From NCBI GenBank assembly GCA_964470525.1, contig CAYYDE010000001.1:128447-192446 (forward strand): DNA of 64,000 nucleotides, written 5' to 3'. This DNA comes from an uncultured Candidatus Peribacteria bacterium (GTDB taxonomy: Bacteria > Patescibacteriota > Gracilibacteria > BD1-5 > UBA6164). Both the position numbers and the translations under genes were made by a program. Positions 10,039-53,311 of this stretch are shown one piece after another. A model generated the notes under the pieces. It ran no database searches. It saw nothing but the letters and a program-made list of their open reading frames with translations, and had not been told where the DNA came from. Each line of letters starts with the position of its first letter. Position 1 is the first letter of the stretch.

Positions 10039-10794
10039 TTATTTTTTTATTATAATTGAAAATATTTTTTCCTCATTTGTTCAAAGGATATAAGGATCAT
10101 CTATTAAAGCTCATTCATCTCAAAAAGTTGGTTCAATACACAAAAAATCTTTTCAAGGTTCTGACCGAAGCCAAAGTTTTTTATAGTTTTCATCATAATC
10201 AAACTCTAAAATATTTTCTCACAAATGTGCAAGAAATGTTCAAGGATTTTTTGTGTAAATTGTTTCTCAAGCAGATTTTTTGTATTCTTCTATCATTTTT
10301 TCATTTTTCTGGAGAAAAAAATTATCTTTTTGAACATTTGGTATGAAAAAATATGGATGAAGTCACGGAGCTATTGGCATTTTTTCAGTTCCAGTATTTT
10401 GTATTTTAAGAGAAATTTTTACAGATTTTTGAATAATTTCAGCTGTAATTTTCAAAAGAAAATCATAAGGAAATAGTTTTTTTGTTTCTGGATTTGAAAG
10501 TAGAATCATTTCAATAAAATTTTCTCAGACTCTATATTGAAAAGGAAAATTACGAGCAAAACCGTGTTGTTTCAGAGAATATTTTGAATTTTCTAAAAGT
10601 GGTCATGCATTTGGAAACATAATAGGAATTCATCCTCGAACATTTTTTGAAAGATCATAAAAAGTTTCTTCATTCAAAAATAGTATGGGTGTTTTTCAAA
10701 AAAATATTTGTGTAATGAGTCATCATCTTTCTGGAGAAAATTCAAGAGTGATGTTGTTGTGAGTGAGGGAAAGTATTTGTGGGGGCATAAACAT
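10039..10794 (-). CDS. Aldose-1-epimerase / hexose-6-phosphate mutarotase family protein
   Basis: ATG 10794, TAA 10039-10041 (251 aa). Motifs GGIPIMFPNAG and QHGFARN are present. The stop lies 4 nt before the ATP-grasp start, consistent with an operon. Confidence 0.75.
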
Positions 10795-10910
10795 ATTTTC
10801 AATAAAGTATTTGGAAATATTATATGATTTTAGAGAAAATGTAAAATAAAGTTGAAAAAATGGGATTTTTTTGTATTCTCTAGGAAATATTTAGTTATCA
10901 ACTAAACACC

Positions 10911-11819
10911 ATGAAACAATTATTACATACTTTTTTTACTTTTTGTATCAAACCATTTTATTGAAGTGGAATTGGAAGACTTTTTCCATTTAATTATATT
11001 TATAAAATATGGATATATATTTGAGATTCTATTAACTTTTCTAACAGCAATACTAGTGTTATCAAAACAACGAAATACTGATTTCAAATGATTCTTGAAA
11101 AAGGTAAAACTATTGATGAAAGTATTATAAATTTATGAGTATGGGAGTCCCATATTAGTGAACTTATAAAAAAATCTCTCAAAGAGTGAGAAACTTTTTT
11201 AGATCTTGGTGCAAATATTGGTTATATGTCACTCTTAGCATCTATAATAGTTGGAGAAAATTGAAAAGTACTCTCTTTTGAACCTAGTAAAACAAATTTT
11301 CAAAAATTAAATCAAAATATCTCTCTCAATAAAATATTAAATATTACTCCTTATAATTATGGTGTTTGAAATAAAAATAGTATAGAAACTCTCTTTTATA
11401 AAACAAATAATCCTGGAGGTTCAAGCATAGTAAATGTAGGGCAAAATAAAAATACTATTCAAGAAGAAATTGAAATCATTAAACTTGATGATTTTATAAA
11501 AGATGAGCAAATTAATTTTATAAAAATGGATATTGAGTGATTTGAATATTTTGCTATAGAATGAATGCTATGAATTCTTAAAAATGACAAAGACATTAAA
11601 ATGATTTTTGAGTATAGCCCATATTATTATAAAGGTATTTATGGGAAAGATTATGAGAAAAAATCTATAGAATTATTAGACACTCTCATAGAAGTATGAT
11701 TTGAATTATATGAAATAAATTATAAATGAAATCTTGTTATTATAAATAATCACATTGGGTTTTTTCATAAAATAAACTGATCTTGAGCTGGACAAGTAGA
11801 CATATTTTGTAAAAAATAA
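10911..11819 (+). CDS. FkbM-family SAM-dependent methyltransferase
   Basis: ATG 10911, TAA 11817-11819 (302 aa). Motifs FLDLGANIGYMS, VLSFEPS and FIKMDIEGFE. Confidence 0.8.
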
Positions 11820-11822
11820 TCT

Positions 11823-12566
11823 TTATTTATTTTTTATTATATATGGTATAATAAGAGAAAAGAAGCTTATTTTAAATTTAAATGTATTATGTCTAAAAAA
11901 GAGAAATTCTAATATAGATATACATTGACTTATAATCACCTTAATTCCTTTTTGATCAGTAAGTCATCATGGTAAATATTCCGAAAAAGTACTATCAAAA
12001 TTATAAGCAGAAAAATTATTTTCTTCTCACAACTCTATGAAGAATAACCATTCTTGTCCCTGCTTAATGATTTTTGAAAATCTTATTTCTCATATGATAT
12101 CTTTTTTTATAAAATGAGTTGCATCTCATTTTATTTTTTTTCATATAAAATAATCATAAAAATAATTATACTCTTTATTATATTTTTGCACCTGTGTAAT
12201 TCATTTTTTATTTGAAATAAACCAATATATATTAGACTTTTTTTCTATAATTTCTTTTGCTTTTTGTAAACATTTTACATCAAAATAATCATCATCATCT
12301 AAAAAAACCACAAAATCAGTGTCATCTGAAAGAGTATTTAATCATACATTTCTAGAAAAATTCACTCCACTATTTTTATTATTTTTTATATATTTAATTC
12401 TAGAATCAGAAAAATCCTTTTTAATATTTTCAAATGTCATATTATCTGTCGAATCATCAATAATTATAAGTTCAAAATTCTGATATGTTTGATTCAAAAC
12501 AGAATTTATACATCTTTTCAATAGTTTATATCTATTATGTGTTGGTGTTATTATTCAAAATTTCAT
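11823..12566 (-). CDS. Glycosyltransferase family 2
   Basis: ATG 12566, TAA 11823-11825 (247 aa; checked codon by codon, no TAA/TAG). GIITPTHNRYKLLKRCINSVLNQTY..FELIIIDDSTD and a DDDD patch indicate a GT-A fold. Confidence 0.8.
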
Positions 12567-12745
12567 ATAAAAAATTATGTATCTAAGATTCATTTTACTT
12601 TTTTCTTGCTATAATATATTTCATATTTTTAAATACATTATATTCTAATAATTCTACATGTATAGAATTATATTTTTGAGCAATTGAGTTATGTATTTTT
12701 CTCATTTTATTGTATTTTATTATCTTTCATAATATTTTTTAAAAT

Positions 12746-13726
12746 CTAAAGTACTTTTTTTATTAAATCATACCATTGATGAACAATAGTATCTTTATCA
12801 AAATTTCTTATATTTTCAAATCATTTCATTAAATACTCTTTATAATAATCTTCATTATTTATCAATTTTTCTAATTTATCAATAAACTCTTTATTATCTT
12901 CAGAAATAAATTCATTATCATAGAGTCAATAATAGCTTTCATAATTATTTAATAAAATTGGTTTTCAAATTGATAATACTTCTAAAAGAATAATTCAAAA
13001 AGTTTCATAAAAAGTGGAATATAAAAAAATATCACATTTTTGTATCTCATTTTTTACTCAATTTTTGTCTAATTTTCAAATCCATTTAATATGTAAATTA
13101 CTACTTAATTGATTTAAATCAAAATCATCTTTCATTTTTTCATAATATTTTCAAAATCAAGCTATTCTATAATTTATTTTTTTTTGAGGATTAAATAATT
13201 TTAATTTTTCATACAAATCAAGAATTCCTCTTGCTTTATCATAAATATCAGCTCTAAAGATAGTTAATAAATTAATTTCTTCTTTATCTTTAATTGAATC
13301 AATTTTTTTATAATTTTTATTAAATCAAGAAAAATTGTATATAATTGCTTGAATAGGATGTTTAGATCAGACATATTGCTGTAAAAAAGATGATGGAAAT
13401 AAAAGTATATCTGAAAAAAATACATTATATGGATAAAACCAACATAATAAAGCTCAAATATTTTTAAATCATCTGTCATTTCTGTATAATCAATGTATTT
13501 CTAAAATATACTTAGACTTAAAAGGTTTCCAAAAAAAAGGGACAGATGAAATAATTACATCATATTTACTTTTTATAAAATGAAGTTTAATCCACTCCAT
13601 TGCTGATGAAACCAAAAAATATTCATATTCAGGATATTTTGCATTTAATAATTTTACTAGATCAGAATATAATGTTTTTGGTCATCATTCTCATACTGGA
13701 GATATAAATGCTATTTTCTTTTTCAT
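12746..13726 (-). CDS. Glycosyltransferase family 4 (GT-B)
   Basis: ATG 13726, TAG 12746-12748 (326 aa; N-terminal half (13259-13726) checked codon by codon). CDIFLYSTFYETFGIILLEVLSIGKPIL is the E-x7-E motif. Confidence 0.75.
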
Positions 13727-13727
13727 C

Positions 13728-14885
13728 CTACAAACTATTATACAGATTAAAATATTTTCCTACACTTTTGTTCCCATCAAACTTTTTTTTCACAGATTGA
13801 CTAGATTTTCAAGATAATTTTTTATAATTTAAAACAGCTTTTTCAATTCATTTTTCAATAGATTCAATATTTCATTTTTCCACAATAATTAAATCATCAA
13901 ATTGAGAAATTTCCTTTGTGCCTCATACATCACTTGCAACAACTACACATCAAGATAACAATCATTCTAAAACAGTAGTAGGAAGTCATTCTTGATAGCT
14001 TGGATTTACAAGTATATCACACCTTCATAAAAATTCCCTTACTTTTTCTCTCGAAAACATTCATAAAAATTGTATATTTTTATTTTTTCAAGCTAAAATC
14101 TCTAATCCCCTTTTCTCTTCTCAATCCCCAACAATTTCTAAAATAATATTTCAATATTTTTTTTCTAAATTTTGAAATGCTTCTATAAATAAATCCACTC
14201 ATTTTAATTTTACCAACCTTCAAACAAATCAAATTTTAATAATATTTCAATTATCAACTTTCTCTCAAGAAATAAAATCAATTCCATTATAAATAACATC
14301 TATTTCTTTTTTAATAAATTCTTTTAAAATAAAACTTTGCACTCATTGGCTTATTGCAACAATTTTATCTGCTTTCTTAAATATCCACTTTCCAATAATC
14401 CTATCATAAAAATATGCTATTTTACTCTTAAAATTACTTGATAATTTTACATAATCACTTCCATGCTCTATATGAACCCATTTTTGTTTTGTGATTTTTG
14501 AAAAAATACCTCACAAAAAACTTGAGAAAAAAAATCTCGTATGAGTCTGAATAATTCAACTTCTCAATTCAGGTAAAAATAAAATTTCCCAAAATATATT
14601 ATTCCAAATTTTTGGAACTGGAAAATTTGGAATAATATCAAAACTTGGCAATAAATAAACCTTATATCAATTCTTATAATATCAAATTATTTTTCCTCAA
14701 GTATTCTTTATCAGTAAATTTTCTTCAATTTGAGAAAGATCTTGGCCTACATCAAATATAACATTTATAACTTCTCAAAAATTATTTTTAACATAAAAAT
14801 ATGACAACTCTTCTGCAACCATTTCAAGTCATCATTTATGAGGTGGAAAATATGGTAAAAACTGAATAATATTTACTTTTTTCAT
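13728..14885 (-). CDS. Glycosyltransferase family 4 (GT-B)
   Basis: ATG 14885, TAG 13728-13730 (385 aa). FLPYFPPHKGGLE and CDILVNPSYQEGLPTTVLEGLLSGCVVVASDVGG are present. Confidence 0.85.
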
Positions 14886-42182: not shown

Positions 42183-43259
42183 TTAATTACAAACATATTC
42201 ATTTAAACGAAAAGGACACACAATATTTCTTCCTCATTTTTCAATTTTTTCACAAAATCTTCCTGTAATTTCTTCTCATCAAGCTGAAGTTTTTTGTGTA
42301 TGATATTGAAATGTTTCTATAATAAAATTTTCACTTTTATCATTTTTTAAATGATATTGATACTTCACACAATATTTTCATTCATCTACTTTTTTGAGTT
42401 CAATAATTTCATGTCAAGATGTCGTTTTTTCCCAAAAATTCGCAAATCCAGAAACACTTTTTGAAAATGCATTACATGATTTTTTTTGTAAAAGAGAACA
42501 ACTTTCATGATACAATCAAGCATTTCAGAGAGTAAAATATGCCTCTATCAAATCTGTATCATCAAGTTTTTGAGTAAAATCTGTTCTGGGATTTATAGAA
42601 GAAGAAATATTTCACATAAATTTCCCCCCTCATGCATCAATATAATTTTGTAAATGATTTTGAGAAATCATTGTCTCTTGTTGTTCTGGAGTTGGGTGTG
42701 TTTGAGCATCCAAAGATATATATTTTTCTTCCAACACTTGTATTTCCTGTTTTGGAAGAAATTCTTTTGGAACAAAAAATTGGTTTTCAGGAGTATCAAA
42801 AAAATGAAAAATCTTTGACACATACAATAGAGTCCCAAAAAATACTATCAAAATTCCCACTAAAAACATTACTTCTCCTGTAAAAAATTTATTCTTTTTG
42901 CTTCTGATATCTGTGACTTTTTGTGTCGCAATTTTTGAATTTAAATACAATTGCTCCAAATATTTTTTTAATTCTTGTACTTCTGACTTTCTCCCATCAC
43001 AAAATTTCAACAAAATATAACATCATCCTCGAGTGATGAGATAATCTCTTGAAGGTCTTCATCCTGTGGTCTTTTTTTCCTCTGGGAAAAAATTCTCATT
43101 CTTTTTTTCATCAGCCAACGAATCCATTGCTCTTTGAATTGCTCATTCAAATCTCTCCCATTTATTGTATCAAAAAGCTTTCATCATGATTCTTGCACGA
43201 AAAAGTTTTTCTCAGTGATTTTCTTCCAAAGCTGATTCAAAAATTGAAATAATATCCAT
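42183..43259 (-). CDS. DinD/BRO-N-like N-terminal domain fused to a TM segment and a Cys-rich C-terminal domain
   Basis: ATG 43259, TAA 42183-42185 (358 aa). The N-terminus LFRARIMMKAFGYNKWERFEGAIQRAMDS...GGRPSRDYLITRGGCYILLKFCDGRKSEV follows the DinD pattern (GY.kW.nF..I.rA ... RP..DY.L.R.ACY). A TM FLVGILIVFFGTLLYV follows, then a C-terminal domain with 7 Cys. Confidence 0.55.
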
Positions 43260-48398: not shown

Positions 48399-48474
48399 GC
48401 ACTTATAGCTCAGTTGGAAGAGTACCAGGCCGCGGACCTGGGGGTCGTGGGTTCGAGCCCTGCTGAGTGCACCA
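48399..48474 (+). tRNA. tRNA-Arg-like, anticodon loop CCGCGGA (formal anticodon GCG, C at position 33), CCA encoded
   Basis: GCACTTATAGCTCAGTTGGAAGAGTACCAGGCCGCGGACCTGGGGGTCGTGGGTTCGAGCCCTGCTGAGTGCACCA. A canonical 76-nt cloverleaf whose body resembles bacterial tRNA-Arg(ACG). The anticodon stem CCAGG/CCTGG is perfect. Confidence 0.85.
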
Positions 48475-48489
48475 TTTTTGATAACAAGT

Positions 48490-48530
48490 AAAAGCACTGC
48501 CAAGATTATACTCTTGGTAGTGCTTTTTTG
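48490..48530 (+). terminator. Rho-independent terminator after tRNA-Arg
   Basis: agcactgccaaga / tcttggtagtgct 13-bp stem (one G-U), then TTTTT. Confidence 0.7.
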
Positions 48531-48540
48531 TGTCTTTTTC

Positions 48541-48569
48541 TTGCAATTTTTATGCATATATGATACACT
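48541..48569 (+). promoter_or_regulatory. Putative promoter of the kinase-like cassette
   Basis: TTGCAA (48541-48546), 17-nt spacer, TACACT (48564-48569). It lies about 30 nt before ATG 48599. Confidence 0.35.
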
Positions 48570-48598
48570 TTTGTTCAATACTTTTAAATTTTTTCACC

Positions 48599-50224
48599 AT
48601 GCCAGAAAGTTTTTAAAGATATAATGAATATATTGAAGAAATAGATGTAAAATGAGATGGAATTCCCGATTGATATAATGAAAATCTTATAAAAGACAAA
48701 GCAAGAGCATATGTAGAAAAAAACATCCAAGAATGAATCACACATGAAGCATATGAAATATTATTGCAAAACATAAAAACCCTCCTTGAAAGACAAGATG
48801 CAGAAAAAATAAATATAAGAGAAGTATTAGAACAACAAGTATGTAAAGAAACCAGAGAATCATTAAATAAAGAAGCACTGATTGTCGAAGCAAAAACAGT
48901 AGTATACGAAAAATGTTGAATAGAAGAAAAAGAGGAAAGAAATTCCAAACCAAAACAATTTCTGAAATGAATAGTAGATCTTCTCATCATAGACAATGAT
49001 GATTTAGCCATAGAAATCTATGAAACCAATGGAAAAGTTATCATAGAAGCACTGAAACAATTGATGAGTTGGGAATGAATAAAACAAATGGCAAAAGCGA
49101 TAGGAGAAAGTATTATGAACTTATTCACCTGAAATGCCTATGAAAAATGAAAAGCAGTTTGAGAATTAGGATTAGTGTGAACTGGAATCTGAGTAACAGC
49201 AGTTCTTTGAAAGAAAGCAATAAAAGTTTGAATGAAAGAAATAGCTAAACGTAGAAACAAGAAAGAACACAGTGTTTGAGATCCTGAGATGAAAGAAGTG
49301 ATTCTTGATACAAGAAGCAAGATTGATGAAATTATACCAAAACAAGAGCTGGATGTTGAAAAAATATTAGCAGAAAATCTTGCAAAATTGTGAGATATTG
49401 ATAGAATGAAAGCTGGAGCAAATCATAATGAAATAAGAACAATTATGGAAAAATGAAGTTGAAAAAAAGAAAGATTGTCAGGTTGATGAACATCTTTGTT
49501 AGATAAACCAGAATTTCGTTTTTTAAATAATCCTGAATATAAAGAATTATTGGACTTATATTGATGAAATATAGATATTGAAAAGTTGTTATGAGAGTGA
49601 CAAAATGCTATCATTTTACAACACCCTCACAAATGAAATAGAGTTTTGAAAATTGCTAAAGAATGAGCAAGAGATGATATCATTCAAGAATTTGATAACC
49701 ATCAAAAATTTTATGAAACATTGGAGCAATGAAGAATTGATTTTCCCTGACAATTAGGTGAGAATGTAAAAATTCCTGTTGTGAGAAAAGGAAATTGAAA
49801 GAATCCCATATATTTTGAAATGGAAAGAATCCATTGACAAAGTTTTAAGAGTTTATTTTACAGAGAAAAATACGCATCTCAATTAGAAAAAATATATTCT
49901 CAAGAAGAATTGAGAAAGATAAGCGATGCAAAATTAGAAAGAGTGGTTGAAGAGTTATGATGAGATATAATTCCAAGAATTATTGTGGCATGAGATGGAT
50001 GATTTTCTAAAGCATTATTCAATGAATCTCAAGCATTTATGTGGAACAAAATCAGAGATCCTCTCAAAAAACAAGAATATGAATTATGAAATACTTTAAG
50101 TTTTTTAGATTGGAAATGACTCAAACATACTGATATGCATAGTTGAAACTTTATGGTTTCAAGAGACTGAAAAACTACATACATAATAGATTTTTGAAAT
50201 ACAAATTTAGACCCTAATAAATAA
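48599..50224 (+). CDS. Two-part protein: charged/Gly-zipper N-terminal half plus C-terminal protein-kinase-fold domain. The ORF is open 48617-50224 and the only upstream ATG (48599) is separated from it by an in-frame TAA (48614-48616)
   Basis: Code-25 translation, checked codon by codon, is open for 535 codons. Kinase motifs are LLGEGQNAI, VLKIAK (49643-49660), HTDMHSGN (50126-50149) and IIDFG (DFG 50189-50197, with G as TGA). A hydrophobic GELGLVGTGIGVTAVLG lies near 49.16-49.21 kb. Confidence 0.6.
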
Positions 50225-50226
50225 AT

Positions 50227-50733
50227 ATGAGTAATAATATTTTAAATAGTCAAAATAGAAATTGCATTATCAACTGATTTACAACTATCAATGATATTTG
50301 AAATTTAAGTGAAACCTTTTTAAATGACATAGCAAGGTCTTTTCATTGAATTTGATATTATAAAGATATACTCACACAATGAATAATTTTTTGATGAAAA
50401 AACTTTTATAATTATTGAGATGATATTTTTATGTTTGAATATGCTTCTTTGGAACAGTTACAACACGACTCTGCAAATTGGAAAAAAAGATGTAAAAAGA
50501 AAAATTCTCTTACCTCTGAAACTATTGATGAAAAACAAATTTTAGAATCATCTTGATATTTTGAGTTCAATTGAAAGTTTTATTTATTATGATTATTATA
50601 TCAAGATATAAATGATGATGATAATGATGAAAGGAAGTGAGTTTATAAATGAGTCATTATAAATTCAGATACATATTTTAAAGTAGAAGATGAAGCAAAA
50701 AAAATTGCTTGAGAAATAGGAGATGTTTTATAA
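50227..50733 (+). CDS. Small partner protein (168 aa) of the kinase-like gene; candidate immunity/antitoxin
   Basis: ATG 50227 lies 2 nt after the upstream stop (50222-50224). TAA 50731-50733. MSNNILNSQNRNCIINGFTT..., with an acidic DINDDDNDE patch. No family recognised. Confidence 0.5.
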
Positions 50734-50809
50734 TTATGAAACAAAAAATGTAATTATTCAAAGATAAAACTACTATTGAGACAAAAAAATCAATGTCTTA
50801 TATTATAAT

Positions 50810-50842
50810 AAAAACCATTTTATAAAATGGTTTTTATTTTTT
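50810..50842. terminator. Bidirectional hairpin terminator closing the cassette
   Basis: aaaaaccattt / aaatggttttt stem with loop tata, then a T-run. It overlaps the stop of the convergent gene. Confidence 0.65.
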
Positions 50843-51391
50843 CCCCTTTTTTCTCCAAAATATTCCTATTCACAAAACACTCACAAATATTCCAATAACA
50901 AAAAAAAGAATATTTTTTGAACTTTTCTCGTTTTCTATTCTATTATCTACTCACTCATCATCATAAGAAATAATTTTATCTTGAAATGCATATAAATCTT
51001 CAGAAGCATTTTCAAAAATATTCGTTCGAGAACACAAAGAAACCCTTTGATTTTCTGGTTCTCAATATGTGTAAACAATGTATTTTGTCCCTATTTCAAA
51101 ATTATATCCACAAGACGCACTACTTGATTCTGTATGAATCGTCTGATATCTATTATATTCTCACTTTACCACATCTGAAACTTGAAATTTTACTTCTTTT
51201 TCACGCATATCAGAAAATAGTTTTCATTTTTTTTCATTCACTCATTGAACTGTTCCCATAAAAACTCCCGTTGCTTTTTCCAGTGAAATTTCTGGAGATT
51301 CTGGAGAAATACATGAACAAGCGAAAGTTTGCGCTCAAAACATACCAAAAGATAAAGAAACAAGCAAAGACTTTACTATAATTTTTTTCAT
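50834..51391 (-). CDS. Secreted TIMP/NTR-like (Cys-x-Cys N-terminus) protein with C-terminal TM anchor
   Basis: ATG 51391, TAA 50834-50836 (185 aa). A signal peptide, then ACSCISPESPE...VFMGTV...ASCGYNFEIGTKYIVY...SLCSRT, the pattern of bacterial TIMP-like proteins. The C-terminus is ILFFVIGIFVSVLGIGIFWRKKGKK. Confidence 0.55.
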
Positions 51392-51469
51392 TTTTTTTAT
51401 ACATTAAAAAATACATCTCTCTCAATAGAACTTTTTATAGAAAAAAACGTGACATTTCATAAATAACTT

Positions 51470-51946
51470 CTACTTTTCCCTTTTTGAAAATTCGCGTATT
51501 AAATCAATTCATCAAATTTTTTGTACTTTTTGTACATAATTATGAGGAAAATATTGTGATTCTATTCATGAAATGAAAAATACATTTTTCCCAGCAAATC
51601 CTGTAAGATGCAAATTTCAAGAAAAACTCAATCCAGTTGAAGTATTTTCAAACAGCATTCCTGTTGAGTTTTCATTTTCAAAATATATAATTGTTCCAGT
51701 AGATGAGTGAAGAGTAAATGAAGTATTTTGTGGAAATTCTGCTTGAAATGTTTCATTTTTTCCTAAAGTATGAGAAAAATTTTCTGAAAAAAGAAATTTT
51801 TCTTCAATTTGTCCCAAATCTCTTCACTCAATATCCTTTGTCACAGCTGATTGAATAGACATATTGATAGAAAAAAATGCACTCAATACAAAAAACATTA
51901 AAAACAAAGTCCAAATCAAAATAGATCATCTTTTATTTGTCTTCAT
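51470..51946 (-). CDS. Putative minor pilin / PilX-N-like pseudopilin
   Basis: ATG 51946, TAG 51470-51472 (158 aa; tail checked codon by codon). MKTNKRGSILIWTLFLMFFVLSAFF resembles GspK/PilX/ComGG-type N-termini. It is divergent from pilB. Confidence 0.5.
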
Positions 51947-52012
51947 ATATTTGCAATAAATAAAGAAATACGATATAATATTTGTAATATAGTTTGTTAA
52001 TTTTTCTCAAAA

Positions 52013-53311
52013 ATGCAAGAAAATAAATCAAATCAAGAAGATTTAAAAGAAAAAGTCCTTTCTCAAGAACAAAAAAAGACCTATAAATCCGAAAAATTTG
52101 CACAACTCGAGCAAATCGTAAAATCATATCTTGCCAAACAAGATACAGATAATACGCTCAAAAATATTACCCTTTGAGCCATGAAACTCTGAAGTTCAGA
52201 TATTCACTATGATAATTATGAACATTTTACTATTTTGCGTTTTAGAATTGATGGAATTTTAGTAGATATTTTTCAGCTTGAAAAAAAGGAATATAAACTC
52301 CTTTTAGAAAGAATTAAACATGCTGGAAATATGAAACTCAATATCACCAATATTCCTCAAGATGGAAAATACACTCTTGATATGGAAGATTCTAAAGTTG
52401 ATGTGAGAATTTCTTCTCTTCCAACTCCATATTGAGAAAATCTTGTGTGTAGAATTTTGGACTCAAAAAAAGCAATTATTGATTTTGAAGAACTTGGTTT
52501 TTTCTGGACTTCAAAAAGAATGCTCGAAAAAGCAATTACTAAAAAAAATGGAATGATTCTTGTAACTTGACCAACTGGTTCAGGGAAAACAACGACTCTT
52601 TACACCGTTCTTTCAAAACTCAATACCAGAGAAAAAAAAGTTATCACTCTTGAAGATCCTATCGAATATCAACTTCCATGAATTATTCAATCCGAAGTGA
52701 ATGAAAAAAATGGATATACGTATCAAATGTGACTCAAAGCACTTCTCAGACAAGATCCAGATATTATCATGCTTGGAGAGATCAGAGATGCTGATACGCT
52801 CAATATTGCTACACAAGCAAGTCTCACTGGGCATCTTGTACTTTCAACACTCCATACAAAAAGCGCTTCTGATACACTTGATCGTATTATAAACATGTGA
52901 CTCAAACCATATATTCTTGCATCAAGTCTTGATACGATTATTGCACAACGACTCGTGAGAAAAATTTGTCCTCATTGTAAACAAGAAGGAGAAAAAACCA
53001 TGGAAGAATCAAAACTCATTAAAGAAATGATGAAAGAAATTGGTATGAAATCGGTAAAAACTGAAAATATTAAACTTTATTCTTGACTTTGATGTGATCA
53101 TTGTAATAATAGTTGATACAAAGGAAGAATTGGAATTTATGAAATAATTTCATTAAATGAAACACTTCGTAATATGATTCGTGAATGATCAACCACACAA
53201 GAAATCATTGATGAAGCAAGAAATATGGATATGATCACCATGAAAGAAGACGGTATTTTAAAAGCCATGAAATGATACACTACCCTTCAAGAAGTGATCC
53301 GTGTTGTATAA
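52013..53311 (+). CDS. pilB: Type IV pilus assembly / type II secretion ATPase (PilB/GspE family)
   Basis: ATG 52013, TAA 53309-53311 (432 aa). Walker [12 protein letters not shown] (first G is TGA 52568-52570), Asp box, Walker [10 protein letters not shown], His box [12 protein letters not shown] and a tetracysteine CPHC...CDHC. Confidence 0.9.

Follow-up and report, generated by a model that had tools for sequence, protein, structure and literature searches.

Immediately downstream of a tRNA-Arg gene in a 64,000-nucleotide stretch of contig CAYYDE010000001.1, from an uncultured Candidatus Peribacteria bacterium (the window, meaning the whole stretch analysed), lies a two-gene cassette which probably belongs to a family of polymorphic toxin–immunity loci whose constant module, kinase-fold toxin clade and immunity family are all new. 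This reading is preferred because the N-terminal module (N-module) of the first protein is common to unrelated C-terminal domains, each type of which has its own downstream partner family. An earlier reading made from the sequence alone (the sequence-only reading) had proposed a toxin/effector–immunity pair and had likened the N-terminal half of gene 1 to a delivery module of polymorphic toxins. The former proposal is now supported by an N-module shared among unrelated toxin domains and a partner whose variation follows the kinase domain rather than the N-module, the latter by recurrence of the module before unrelated C-terminal toxin domains. The parts of the cassette are as follows.

48599–50224, plus strand: gene 1, the putative ancestral toxin open reading frame (ORF), 541 codons including the interrupting stop, made up of N-module, junction and kinase-fold domain.
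48599–49408, plus strand: constant N-module, ca. 270 amino acids (ca. 270–290 across the family), predicted all-helical, with no signal peptide.
48614–48616, plus strand: in-frame TAA at codon 6 of gene 1, where all homologous loci have TGA (Gly).
49154–49210, plus strand: Gly-rich hydrophobic helix AVGELGLVGTGIGVTAVLG, four of its glycines being TGA codons.
49409–49471, plus strand: junction motif KAGANHNEIRTIMEKGSGKKE (containing IMEKGSGKKE), the local form of the family motif.
49496–50221, plus strand: putative kinase-fold toxin domain, ending 9 amino acids after DFG.
50227–50733, plus strand: gene 2, 168 amino acids, isoelectric point 4.8, starting 2 nucleotides after the gene 1 stop, intact.
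50605–50631, plus strand: DINDDDNDE acidic patch of gene 2.

Much of the sequence-only description of these parts stands. The 168 residues of gene 2, its DINDDDNDE patch and its start 2 nucleotides after the gene 1 stop are as described, the motifs LLGEGQNAI, VLKIAK, HTDMHSGN and IIDFG are all present in gene 1, and the hydrophobic glycine zipper corresponds to the Gly-rich stretch at 49154–49210. The cassette had also been called purine-rich, and the coding strand of gene 1 is 63% purine, the second highest among 53 window ORFs. The statement that both proteins fall outside described families agrees with searches of Pfam, NCBIfam, PADLOC and PHROGs, none of which returned a match at threshold.

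Interpretation of the locus depends on its genetic code. The window is AT-rich (GC content ca. 28%) and, judged on codon placement, its genome is one that reads TGA as glycine (genetic code 25), because TGA occupies universally conserved glycines and the housekeeping genes of the window use TAA or TAG as stop codons. The first glycine of the Walker A motif GPTGSGKT in a T2SSE ATPase is encoded by TGA, as are the two G-loop glycines and the glycine of DFG in the kinase domain of gene 1; code 4 (TGA as tryptophan) is ruled out by the same positions. Within the cassette (48617–50733) TGA accounts for 52 of 63 glycine codons (83%); in the remaining 51 ORFs its share is 50% (Fisher p 2e-7), a difference for which origin, expression level or mutational bias could be the cause. 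A high TGA-Gly share is not unique to the cassette, a few other low-GC genes of the window being similar.

The extent of the family was assessed by protein searches and by a genome and metagenome survey of loci; locus counts given here are those among the matches listed. With gene 1 as query, word-based searches recovered just 12 protein clusters, and with the gene 2 family 11, all named clusters belonging to Candidatus Gracilibacteria or Ca. Altimarinota. An exhaustive profile search raised the number to 359 representatives at E ≤ 0.001. Tryptophan exceeds 3% in 135 of the 149 best hits (medians 6.4% Trp and 1.6% Gly), as in TGA=Gly genes translated with tryptophan. Because of this excess the family appears, from composition, to be essentially confined to TGA-recoded lineages (code-25 Patescibacteria; Gracilibacteria/Ca. 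Altimarinota). Database entries, P0001 and P0013 included, are mostly TGA=Trp translations or have wrong starts (P0001 begins at a TTG 55 codons in), and since they are mistranslated or mis-started the family has been hidden from Pfam-type annotation.

The N-module of the window is 52–66% identical to those of other members, including members with other C-termini. It precedes a kinase domain in the window, P0002–P0004 and P0009; an ART-like domain in P0007, P0008 and P0010–P0012; a Zeta_toxin domain (PF06414, above threshold) in P0054, P0157 and L021; and an HD_5 domain in P0135. The ART-like domain carries the motifs YTD..Y..LN..RG, LRGD, FTSVS and NEG and has a weak PDB match to Listeria Lmo0066 (E 0.015). 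Other tails are unassigned; counting every non-kinase tail of 110 amino acids or more, 34 proteins fall into 16 BLAST clusters. The exchange is marked by the family junction motif, ...AGFxxxE(I/R)RxL(L/M)EKGVCGK(E/D), present in 23 members, right after which the sequences diverge into different toxin domains. The kinase domain in turn is not tied to this module, being found after a clearly distinct N-terminal region (P0006/L005 type) as well as in far longer proteins. Partners differ accordingly by type: the ART-like type is followed by a family of 231–293 amino acids, L019 by a protein of 125 amino acids, and both L020 and L021 (Zeta type) by HD_4 proteins, which are hydrolases of the RelA/SpoT type.

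The N-module toxins with HD_4 partners (L020 3980–6759 and L021 3842–6370) form an observation in their own right, as hydrolase partners of this kind suggest enzymatic immunity against nucleotide-modifying toxins. A RelA/SpoT-synthetase reading of the L020 toxin tail was set aside, being a motif guess by eye with no Pfam match.

The second line of evidence is the co-variation of gene 2 with the kinase domain. In loci with readable downstream DNA, relatives of gene 2 are always immediately downstream of kinase-type domains or their remnants, and no kinase-type member in such loci lacked a partner; a kinase occurring without gene 2, which the sequence-only reading had named as evidence against a pair, was not seen there. 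Subtype A kinases (window, L015, L005a and the L004 remnant) have partners that are 58–77% identical among themselves; subtype B kinases (L008, L016, L018) have a 172-amino acid partner 32–38% identical to gene 2; and the partners of subtype C (L009/L010/L024, L023) and of L005b are still more divergent. Partner identity tracks kinase-domain identity (Spearman 0.58, p ca. 0.001, over 28 non-independent pairs) and shows no correlation with N-module identity (Spearman 0.07, 28 pairs). Individual comparisons point the same way. Between L005a and L005b the N-module is 89% identical, the kinase 32% and the partner 21%; between the window and L005a the N-modules are unrelated, with kinases 71% and partners 65% identical. 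L005 (3002–7186) is itself a small toxin arsenal at one locus, holding two tandem toxin–partner pairs which share the alternative N-terminal region and differ in kinase subtype and partner.

Furthermore, the loci record turnover of C-terminal cassettes. In L004, beside four tRNA genes, an intact gene 2 homolog is immediately preceded by what is left of a subtype A kinase, its last ca. 35 residues (...LTDMHSGNFMLSRDGKTTYIIDFGNTNLNIKK). L018 has the order kinase toxin, its partner, then an orphan ART-type partner. L016, L023 and L024/L009 represent one chromosomal site, because the same 306-amino acid downstream gene (81–93% identical) is common to all of them. This site holds kinase B with partner B in L016; a split N-module, a kinase deleted to its last 11 residues and partner C in L023; and kinase C, partner C and a split orphan partner B in L024/L009. 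The toxin is disrupted beside an intact cognate partner in five of ten independent kinase-type loci (window, L009/L010, L016, L023, L004). Loss of toxin with retention of immunity is the pattern expected of an antagonistic toxin–immunity system, not of a housekeeping kinase, and the family is a clear example of it.

The N-module has no relative in Pfam, PHROGs or PDB by sequence and profile searches. In an AlphaFold2 (AF2) model of the homolog P0003, not of the window protein, the module is helical at low confidence. Its helix AVGELGLVGTGIGVTAVLG is the sole hydrophobic segment of the gene 1 protein (Kyte–Doolittle maximum 1.53, which is marginal for a transmembrane helix), and most homologs have a canonical GxxxGxxxG zipper at this position. 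Glycine zippers of this kind are known from membrane-active toxins and effector translocation segments such as TspA, TelE and VacA. Gene 1 resembles these in having a short, GxxxGxxxG-type hydrophobic helix within an otherwise soluble helical protein, but its zipper is in the constant module and not in the variable toxin domain, a position which suggests a role in delivery rather than toxic activity. We infer that the N-module is an export and/or membrane-translocation module. A bolder proposal, that the module is a delivery device specific to Patescibacteria, is doubtful; if true, Gracilibacteria living as epibionts or predators would employ it to bring a changeable arsenal (kinase, ART-like, Zeta, HD and others) into the cells of hosts or rivals, by a pathway distinct from the known type V to type VII (T5–T7) ones, and the kinase would be a new class of interbacterial phosphorylating toxin.

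The C-terminal domain carries a complete set of kinase catalytic elements, distributed as follows.

49586–49612, plus strand: G-loop LLGEGQNAI, its glycines including TGA codons.
49643–49660, plus strand: catalytic Lys motif VLKIAK.
49673–49693, plus strand: alphaC Glu in DDIIQEF.
50126–50149, plus strand: catalytic loop HTDMHSGN.
50183–50197, plus strand: IIDFG.

Two family alignments show no variation at the catalytic K, E, D, N and D, and the window protein has them all. By score, the window protein is below the Pfam thresholds for APH (PF01636; 22.4 against 23.2), ABC1/UbiB (PF03109; 18.6 against 22.9) and Pkinase (PF00069; 12.5 against 31.7), and in Pfam, NCBIfam, PADLOC and PHROGs gene 1 gives only sub-threshold kinase catalytic-loop matches. 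Its profile finds generic kinases alone among PDB sequences, at E ca. 0.004 or weaker. The homologs P0003 and L005_453 are above the APH and ABC1 thresholds, P0003 also above that of Pkinase. The structure was examined on P0003 (the L018 protein), which is 38% identical to the window protein in the kinase domain. The AF2 model has a predicted local distance difference test score (pLDDT) of 80–90 in this domain, and Foldseek pairs it with protein kinases, RIO2 and PRPK/Bud32 at probability 1.0 and E ca. 1e-5, with no close specific kinase family in PDB or BFVD. A bilobal protein-kinase fold is thus supported by modelling of a homolog.

The domain is nevertheless unlike described kinases. It shares with APH, ABC1/UbiB, RIO, Bud32/PRPK and YrbL the Gly-rich loop, the VAIK-type Lys, the alphaC Glu, the H-x-D-x-H-x-x-N loop and DFG, but its family scores are sub-threshold, it stops 9 residues after DFG, and ca. 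100 residues of helices are inserted between hinge and catalytic loop. Neither the window protein nor its homologs have an activation segment or the post-DFG helices of the C-lobe (APE, alphaF–alphaI). The H-x-D-x-H-x-x-N loop is one which we take to be of the APH/RIO/Bud32 type, and because of this loop type the substrate could be a protein or a small molecule.

Gene 2 has no match in Pfam, NCBIfam, PADLOC or PHROGs, and the profile of its family has none among PDB sequences. A low-confidence model of its homolog P0014 returned almost only kinase and APH structures in Foldseek (E 0.02–0.16, none at E ≤ 0.001), and profile alignment (hhalign) of the gene 2 family to the toxin kinase domains was not significant (probability 1.4%). 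As a weaker possibility, drawn from the model, the immunity protein may be a degenerate mimic of the kinase N-lobe.

Taken as a mechanism, gene 1 would encode a toxin with a conserved promoter and 5' untranslated region (5'UTR), a constant N-module, the junction motif and an exchangeable C-terminal toxin domain. The N-module with its Gly-zipper helix would handle export and/or membrane translocation, and the atypical, truncated kinase-fold domain would poison the target cell via ATP-dependent phosphorylation of a protein or small molecule. Gene 2, 2 nucleotides downstream and coupled to gene 1 in translation, would be the cognate immunity protein, which would bind the kinase of this subtype and block it, both in the producer and in related cells. 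With the nonsense change at codon 6, the window could at best yield an N-terminally truncated, probably non-exported product from an internal start, and with gene 2 intact the locus would now be mainly an immunity locus. We infer secretion, target, toxicity and neutralisation alike.

The family has much in common with the polymorphic toxin systems defined by Zhang, de Souza, Anantharaman, Iyer and Aravind (2012; PMC3482391). Like CdiA-CT/CdiI, Rhs, LXG/type VII secretion system (T7SS) and MafB toxins, it combines a constant N-region, an exchangeable C-terminal toxin and an immunity gene immediately downstream. Its junction motif resembles the demarcation motifs VENN (CdiA) and PxxxxDPxGL (Rhs), orphan immunity genes and toxin stubs arise in both from cassette displacement, and both repertoires include ART-like, Zeta and HD domains. 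It differs in that its N-module matches no trafficking domain (Pfam, PDB, PHROGs), in that no known secretion system is linked to it, and in its near-complete confinement to TGA=Gly Patescibacteria. In addition, its eukaryotic protein kinase-like (ePK-like) toxin domain and the corresponding immunity family are undescribed; the kinase toxins of the 2012 catalogue are only of the lantibiotic-synthetase type ('Tox-Peptide Kinase'), PVC-secreted Firmicutes toxins (PMC3482391). By analogy, the cassette may also be likened to HipA/HipB, Zeta/Epsilon and PezT, in which a phosphotransferase is a growth-arresting toxin with a small cognate neutraliser, and Zeta_toxin domains on the same N-module in sibling loci link the family to Zeta/Epsilon and PezT. 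In contrast to HipA/HipB and Zeta/Epsilon, gene 1 has no HipA or Zeta signature, the partner is downstream and not upstream, and the large constant N-module with cassette swapping is not typical of toxin–antitoxin (TA) modules.

No account of polymorphic toxins in Gracilibacteria, Absconditabacteria or Patescibacteria, or of this kinase–immunity pair, was found in the text library searched. For Gracilibacteria, as for other ultra-small Patescibacteria, little is known of host attack or of competition with kin, and the family is a candidate weapon system in a lineage made hard to annotate by TGA=Gly, which breaks standard gene calling. The export route of the new constant module could reveal a secretion mechanism, and a kinase-fold toxin, a rare type, which comes with its own immunity protein would be a useful handle for finding the phosphorylated target.

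Several points weigh against the polymorphic toxin–immunity interpretation. The loci are mostly from metagenome-assembled genomes and short contigs, and L009, L010 and L024 are near-identical populations. Mistranslated proteins underwent a heuristic W-to-G correction before clustering and Pfam scans of the alternative C-termini. No match to LXG, PAAR, Rhs, MuF or other described trafficking domains was found for the N-module in Pfam or PHROGs, no signal peptide or recognised secretion signal was found in gene 1, and no dedicated secretion genes were seen adjoining the cassette, only type IV pilus/type II secretion system (T2SS) genes nearby. The model of the gene 2 homolog P0014 has a pLDDT of 47.6 and is unreliable. 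Finally, every effector type seen (kinase, ART, Zeta, HD/SpoT-like partners) is also known from intracellular TA modules.

This last point leads to the most durable alternative, an intracellular TA or abortive-infection module against phage, in which the kinase would be self-directed, gene 2 its antitoxin and the N-module an anchor or sensor. Kinase, ART, Zeta and SpoT-like-hydrolase pairings are known TA themes, with Zeta_toxin domains and HD_4 partners in sibling loci, and the lack of a detected secretion signal in gene 1 and the position beside tRNA genes, as in many mobile defence islands, agree with such a module. Weak, sub-threshold PADLOC matches to STK_OB and PD-T4-6 might be added, but these are limited to 35–40 catalytic-loop residues (E 7e-4 to 9e-3), with no significant full-length match. 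Four features typify secreted polymorphic toxins and not TA modules: the constant N-module of ca. 290 amino acids with a demarcation motif, the displaced C-terminal cassettes at a syntenic site, the orphan-partner arrays and, in L005, paralogous pairs in tandem. The partner, too, always lies on the downstream side. Relatives were found neither in IMG/VR viral contigs nor in PHROGs, and in the window no integrase, tRNA-derived direct repeat or att-like repeat flanks the cassette. The TA or defence alternative is therefore unlikely, chiefly because of the constant module with its junction motif, the cassette displacement and the orphan partner arrays; the defence module that the sequence-only reading had offered as an option gained no specific support.

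Under the toxin–immunity interpretation, the state of gene 1 in the window still has to be considered. The sequence-only reading gave an open frame of 535 codons at 48617–50224; this frame is indeed open under code 25, but its true start is the ATG at 48599 and a TAA follows at codon 6, so gene 1 here is not an intact 535-codon gene. Homologs start MAEVFGNHNEYI... or MPEVFGNH... and align from the ATG at 48599 (MPESF...); in tblastn their alignment begins at this ATG and runs through the in-frame stop. One G-to-A transition accounts for the change from TGA to TAA. Three separately assembled read sets (Logan L001–L003, 100% identical in sequence) also carry it, so that an assembly error in this record is ruled out. 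The toxin gene of the window is knocked out, or at least N-terminally truncated, and full-length toxin is probably not made in this genome. Two more lineages have in-frame TAA/TAG stops in the N-module only, with an open kinase domain, which is probably decay.

L009/L010, 4722–6413: interrupted toxin with two stops (ELR*K*IGETRE).
L016, 3980–5704: interrupted toxin with one stop (LAI*IWQTNG).

These cases can also be turned to the opposite view, that the codon 6 TAA is harmless and that re-initiation, a nearby non-ATG start or readthrough yields active toxin minus a few N-terminal residues. The other 535 codons are wholly open with all catalytic residues intact, a stop only 5 codons after the ATG has a geometry favouring re-initiation, and in L009/L010 and L016 the stops are likewise confined to the N-module with the kinase intact. 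However, no in-frame ATG occurs until 49064, the first in the open frame; the NCBI-style call P0001 requires a TTG 55 codons in; and TAA is the usual stop of the window genome. Stops are moreover the expected first step of decay in an AT-rich gene rich in GAA, CAA and TGA codons, plainly dead toxin copies are known in L004 and L023, and the location of all four stops in the N-terminal half is statistically unremarkable (about 0.06). A harmless stop is accordingly improbable.

That gene 1 is instead a hisS-region kinase with a housekeeping or signalling role, and with gene 2 as its regulator or substrate, is highly improbable, for although the L008 homolog is also beside hisS and type IV pilus genes and NCBI labels one homolog 'phosphotransferase', gene 1 is interrupted here and decayed or deleted in four other lineages with a surviving partner, the same N-module bears non-kinase domains, kinase subtypes at equivalent positions are only 30–45% identical and swap together with their partners (the hisS-adjoining L008 homolog being a different kinase subtype with its own partner subtype, not the conserved syntenic kinase against which the sequence-only reading had set its pair), and the family is patchy in distribution, in differing genomic contexts.

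Expression signals set the cassette apart as a transcription unit, as the sequence-only reading had described: it directly follows tRNA-Arg and a terminator, has a promoter-like element and ends in a terminator of its own.

48399–48474, plus strand: tRNA-Arg (anticodon GCG), upstream neighbour of the cassette, identified by ARAGORN and Rfam.
48490–48527, plus strand: intrinsic terminator of the tRNA unit, a 16 bp hairpin (free energy, dG, −24.5 kcal/mol, z −6.9).
48541–48569, plus strand: predicted cassette promoter, with −35 TTGCAA (48541–48546), a 17-nucleotide spacer and −10 TACACT (48564–48569).
48570–48598, plus strand: short 5'UTR, partly conserved among homologous loci (upstream alignment by eye).
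50807–50842, plus strand: cassette terminator, a perfect 16+16-nucleotide palindrome at 50807–50838 (dG −12 kcal/mol, z −5.2) followed by a T run.

The first terminator shields the cassette from upstream transcription. The promoter matches the sigma-70 consensus at 8 of 12 positions only and is absent from the promoter scan list; an extended −10-like TATGA precedes its TACACT. This weak element is rescued because TTGCAA-N17-TA(C/A)ACT with TATGATACACT is kept upstream of homologous N-module genes in at least eight other loci (L009, L011, L012, L014, L016, L018, L019 and partly L008). A fold test of the 5'UTR gave no significant RNA structure (z −0.9). The terminator at 50807–50842 faces the convergent gene at 50834–51391 on the minus strand.

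The cassette is surrounded by housekeeping genes, including those for an NTP transferase, RecJ and HisS, with the T2SSE ATPase and a LysM-CHAP hydrolase on its 3' side. An Rfam scan of the window found tRNAs and no other RNA family. The idea of an integrated island or prophage cargo is unsupported at the window locus, given the lack of flanking repeats and of IMG/VR relatives. Five family loci are located directly or at most 2 kb downstream of tRNA genes of differing identity, the tRNA positions being as follows.

Window, 48399–48474 (plus strand).
L004, 5250–5714.
L019, 1942–2017.
L020, 3314–3667.
L011, 2514–2864.

In three loci, type IV pilus/T2SS genes (T2SSE ATPase, T2SSF and N_methyl pilin-like) lie 1–5 kb downstream of the cassette, which may be coincidental in Patescibacteria, rich in pili as they are, or may point to the export route.

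Window, 50834–53311.
L008, 4006–8375.
L023, 6027–7430.

In the window, the ORF at 50834–51391 is lipoprotein-like and that at 51470–51946 pilin-like. Elsewhere in the window, an ORF block at 10039–14885 has a GC content of 0.20–0.27, with TGA making up 66–94% of glycine codons as against ca. 50% elsewhere, and from this composition it looks like an accessory or horizontally acquired segment. Between the NTP-transferase gene and recJ, the minus-strand ORF at 42183–43259 (358 amino acids) has a weak, sub-threshold Bro-N-like N-terminus (E 3.6e-4), a central hydrophobic stretch and a Cys-rich C-terminus.

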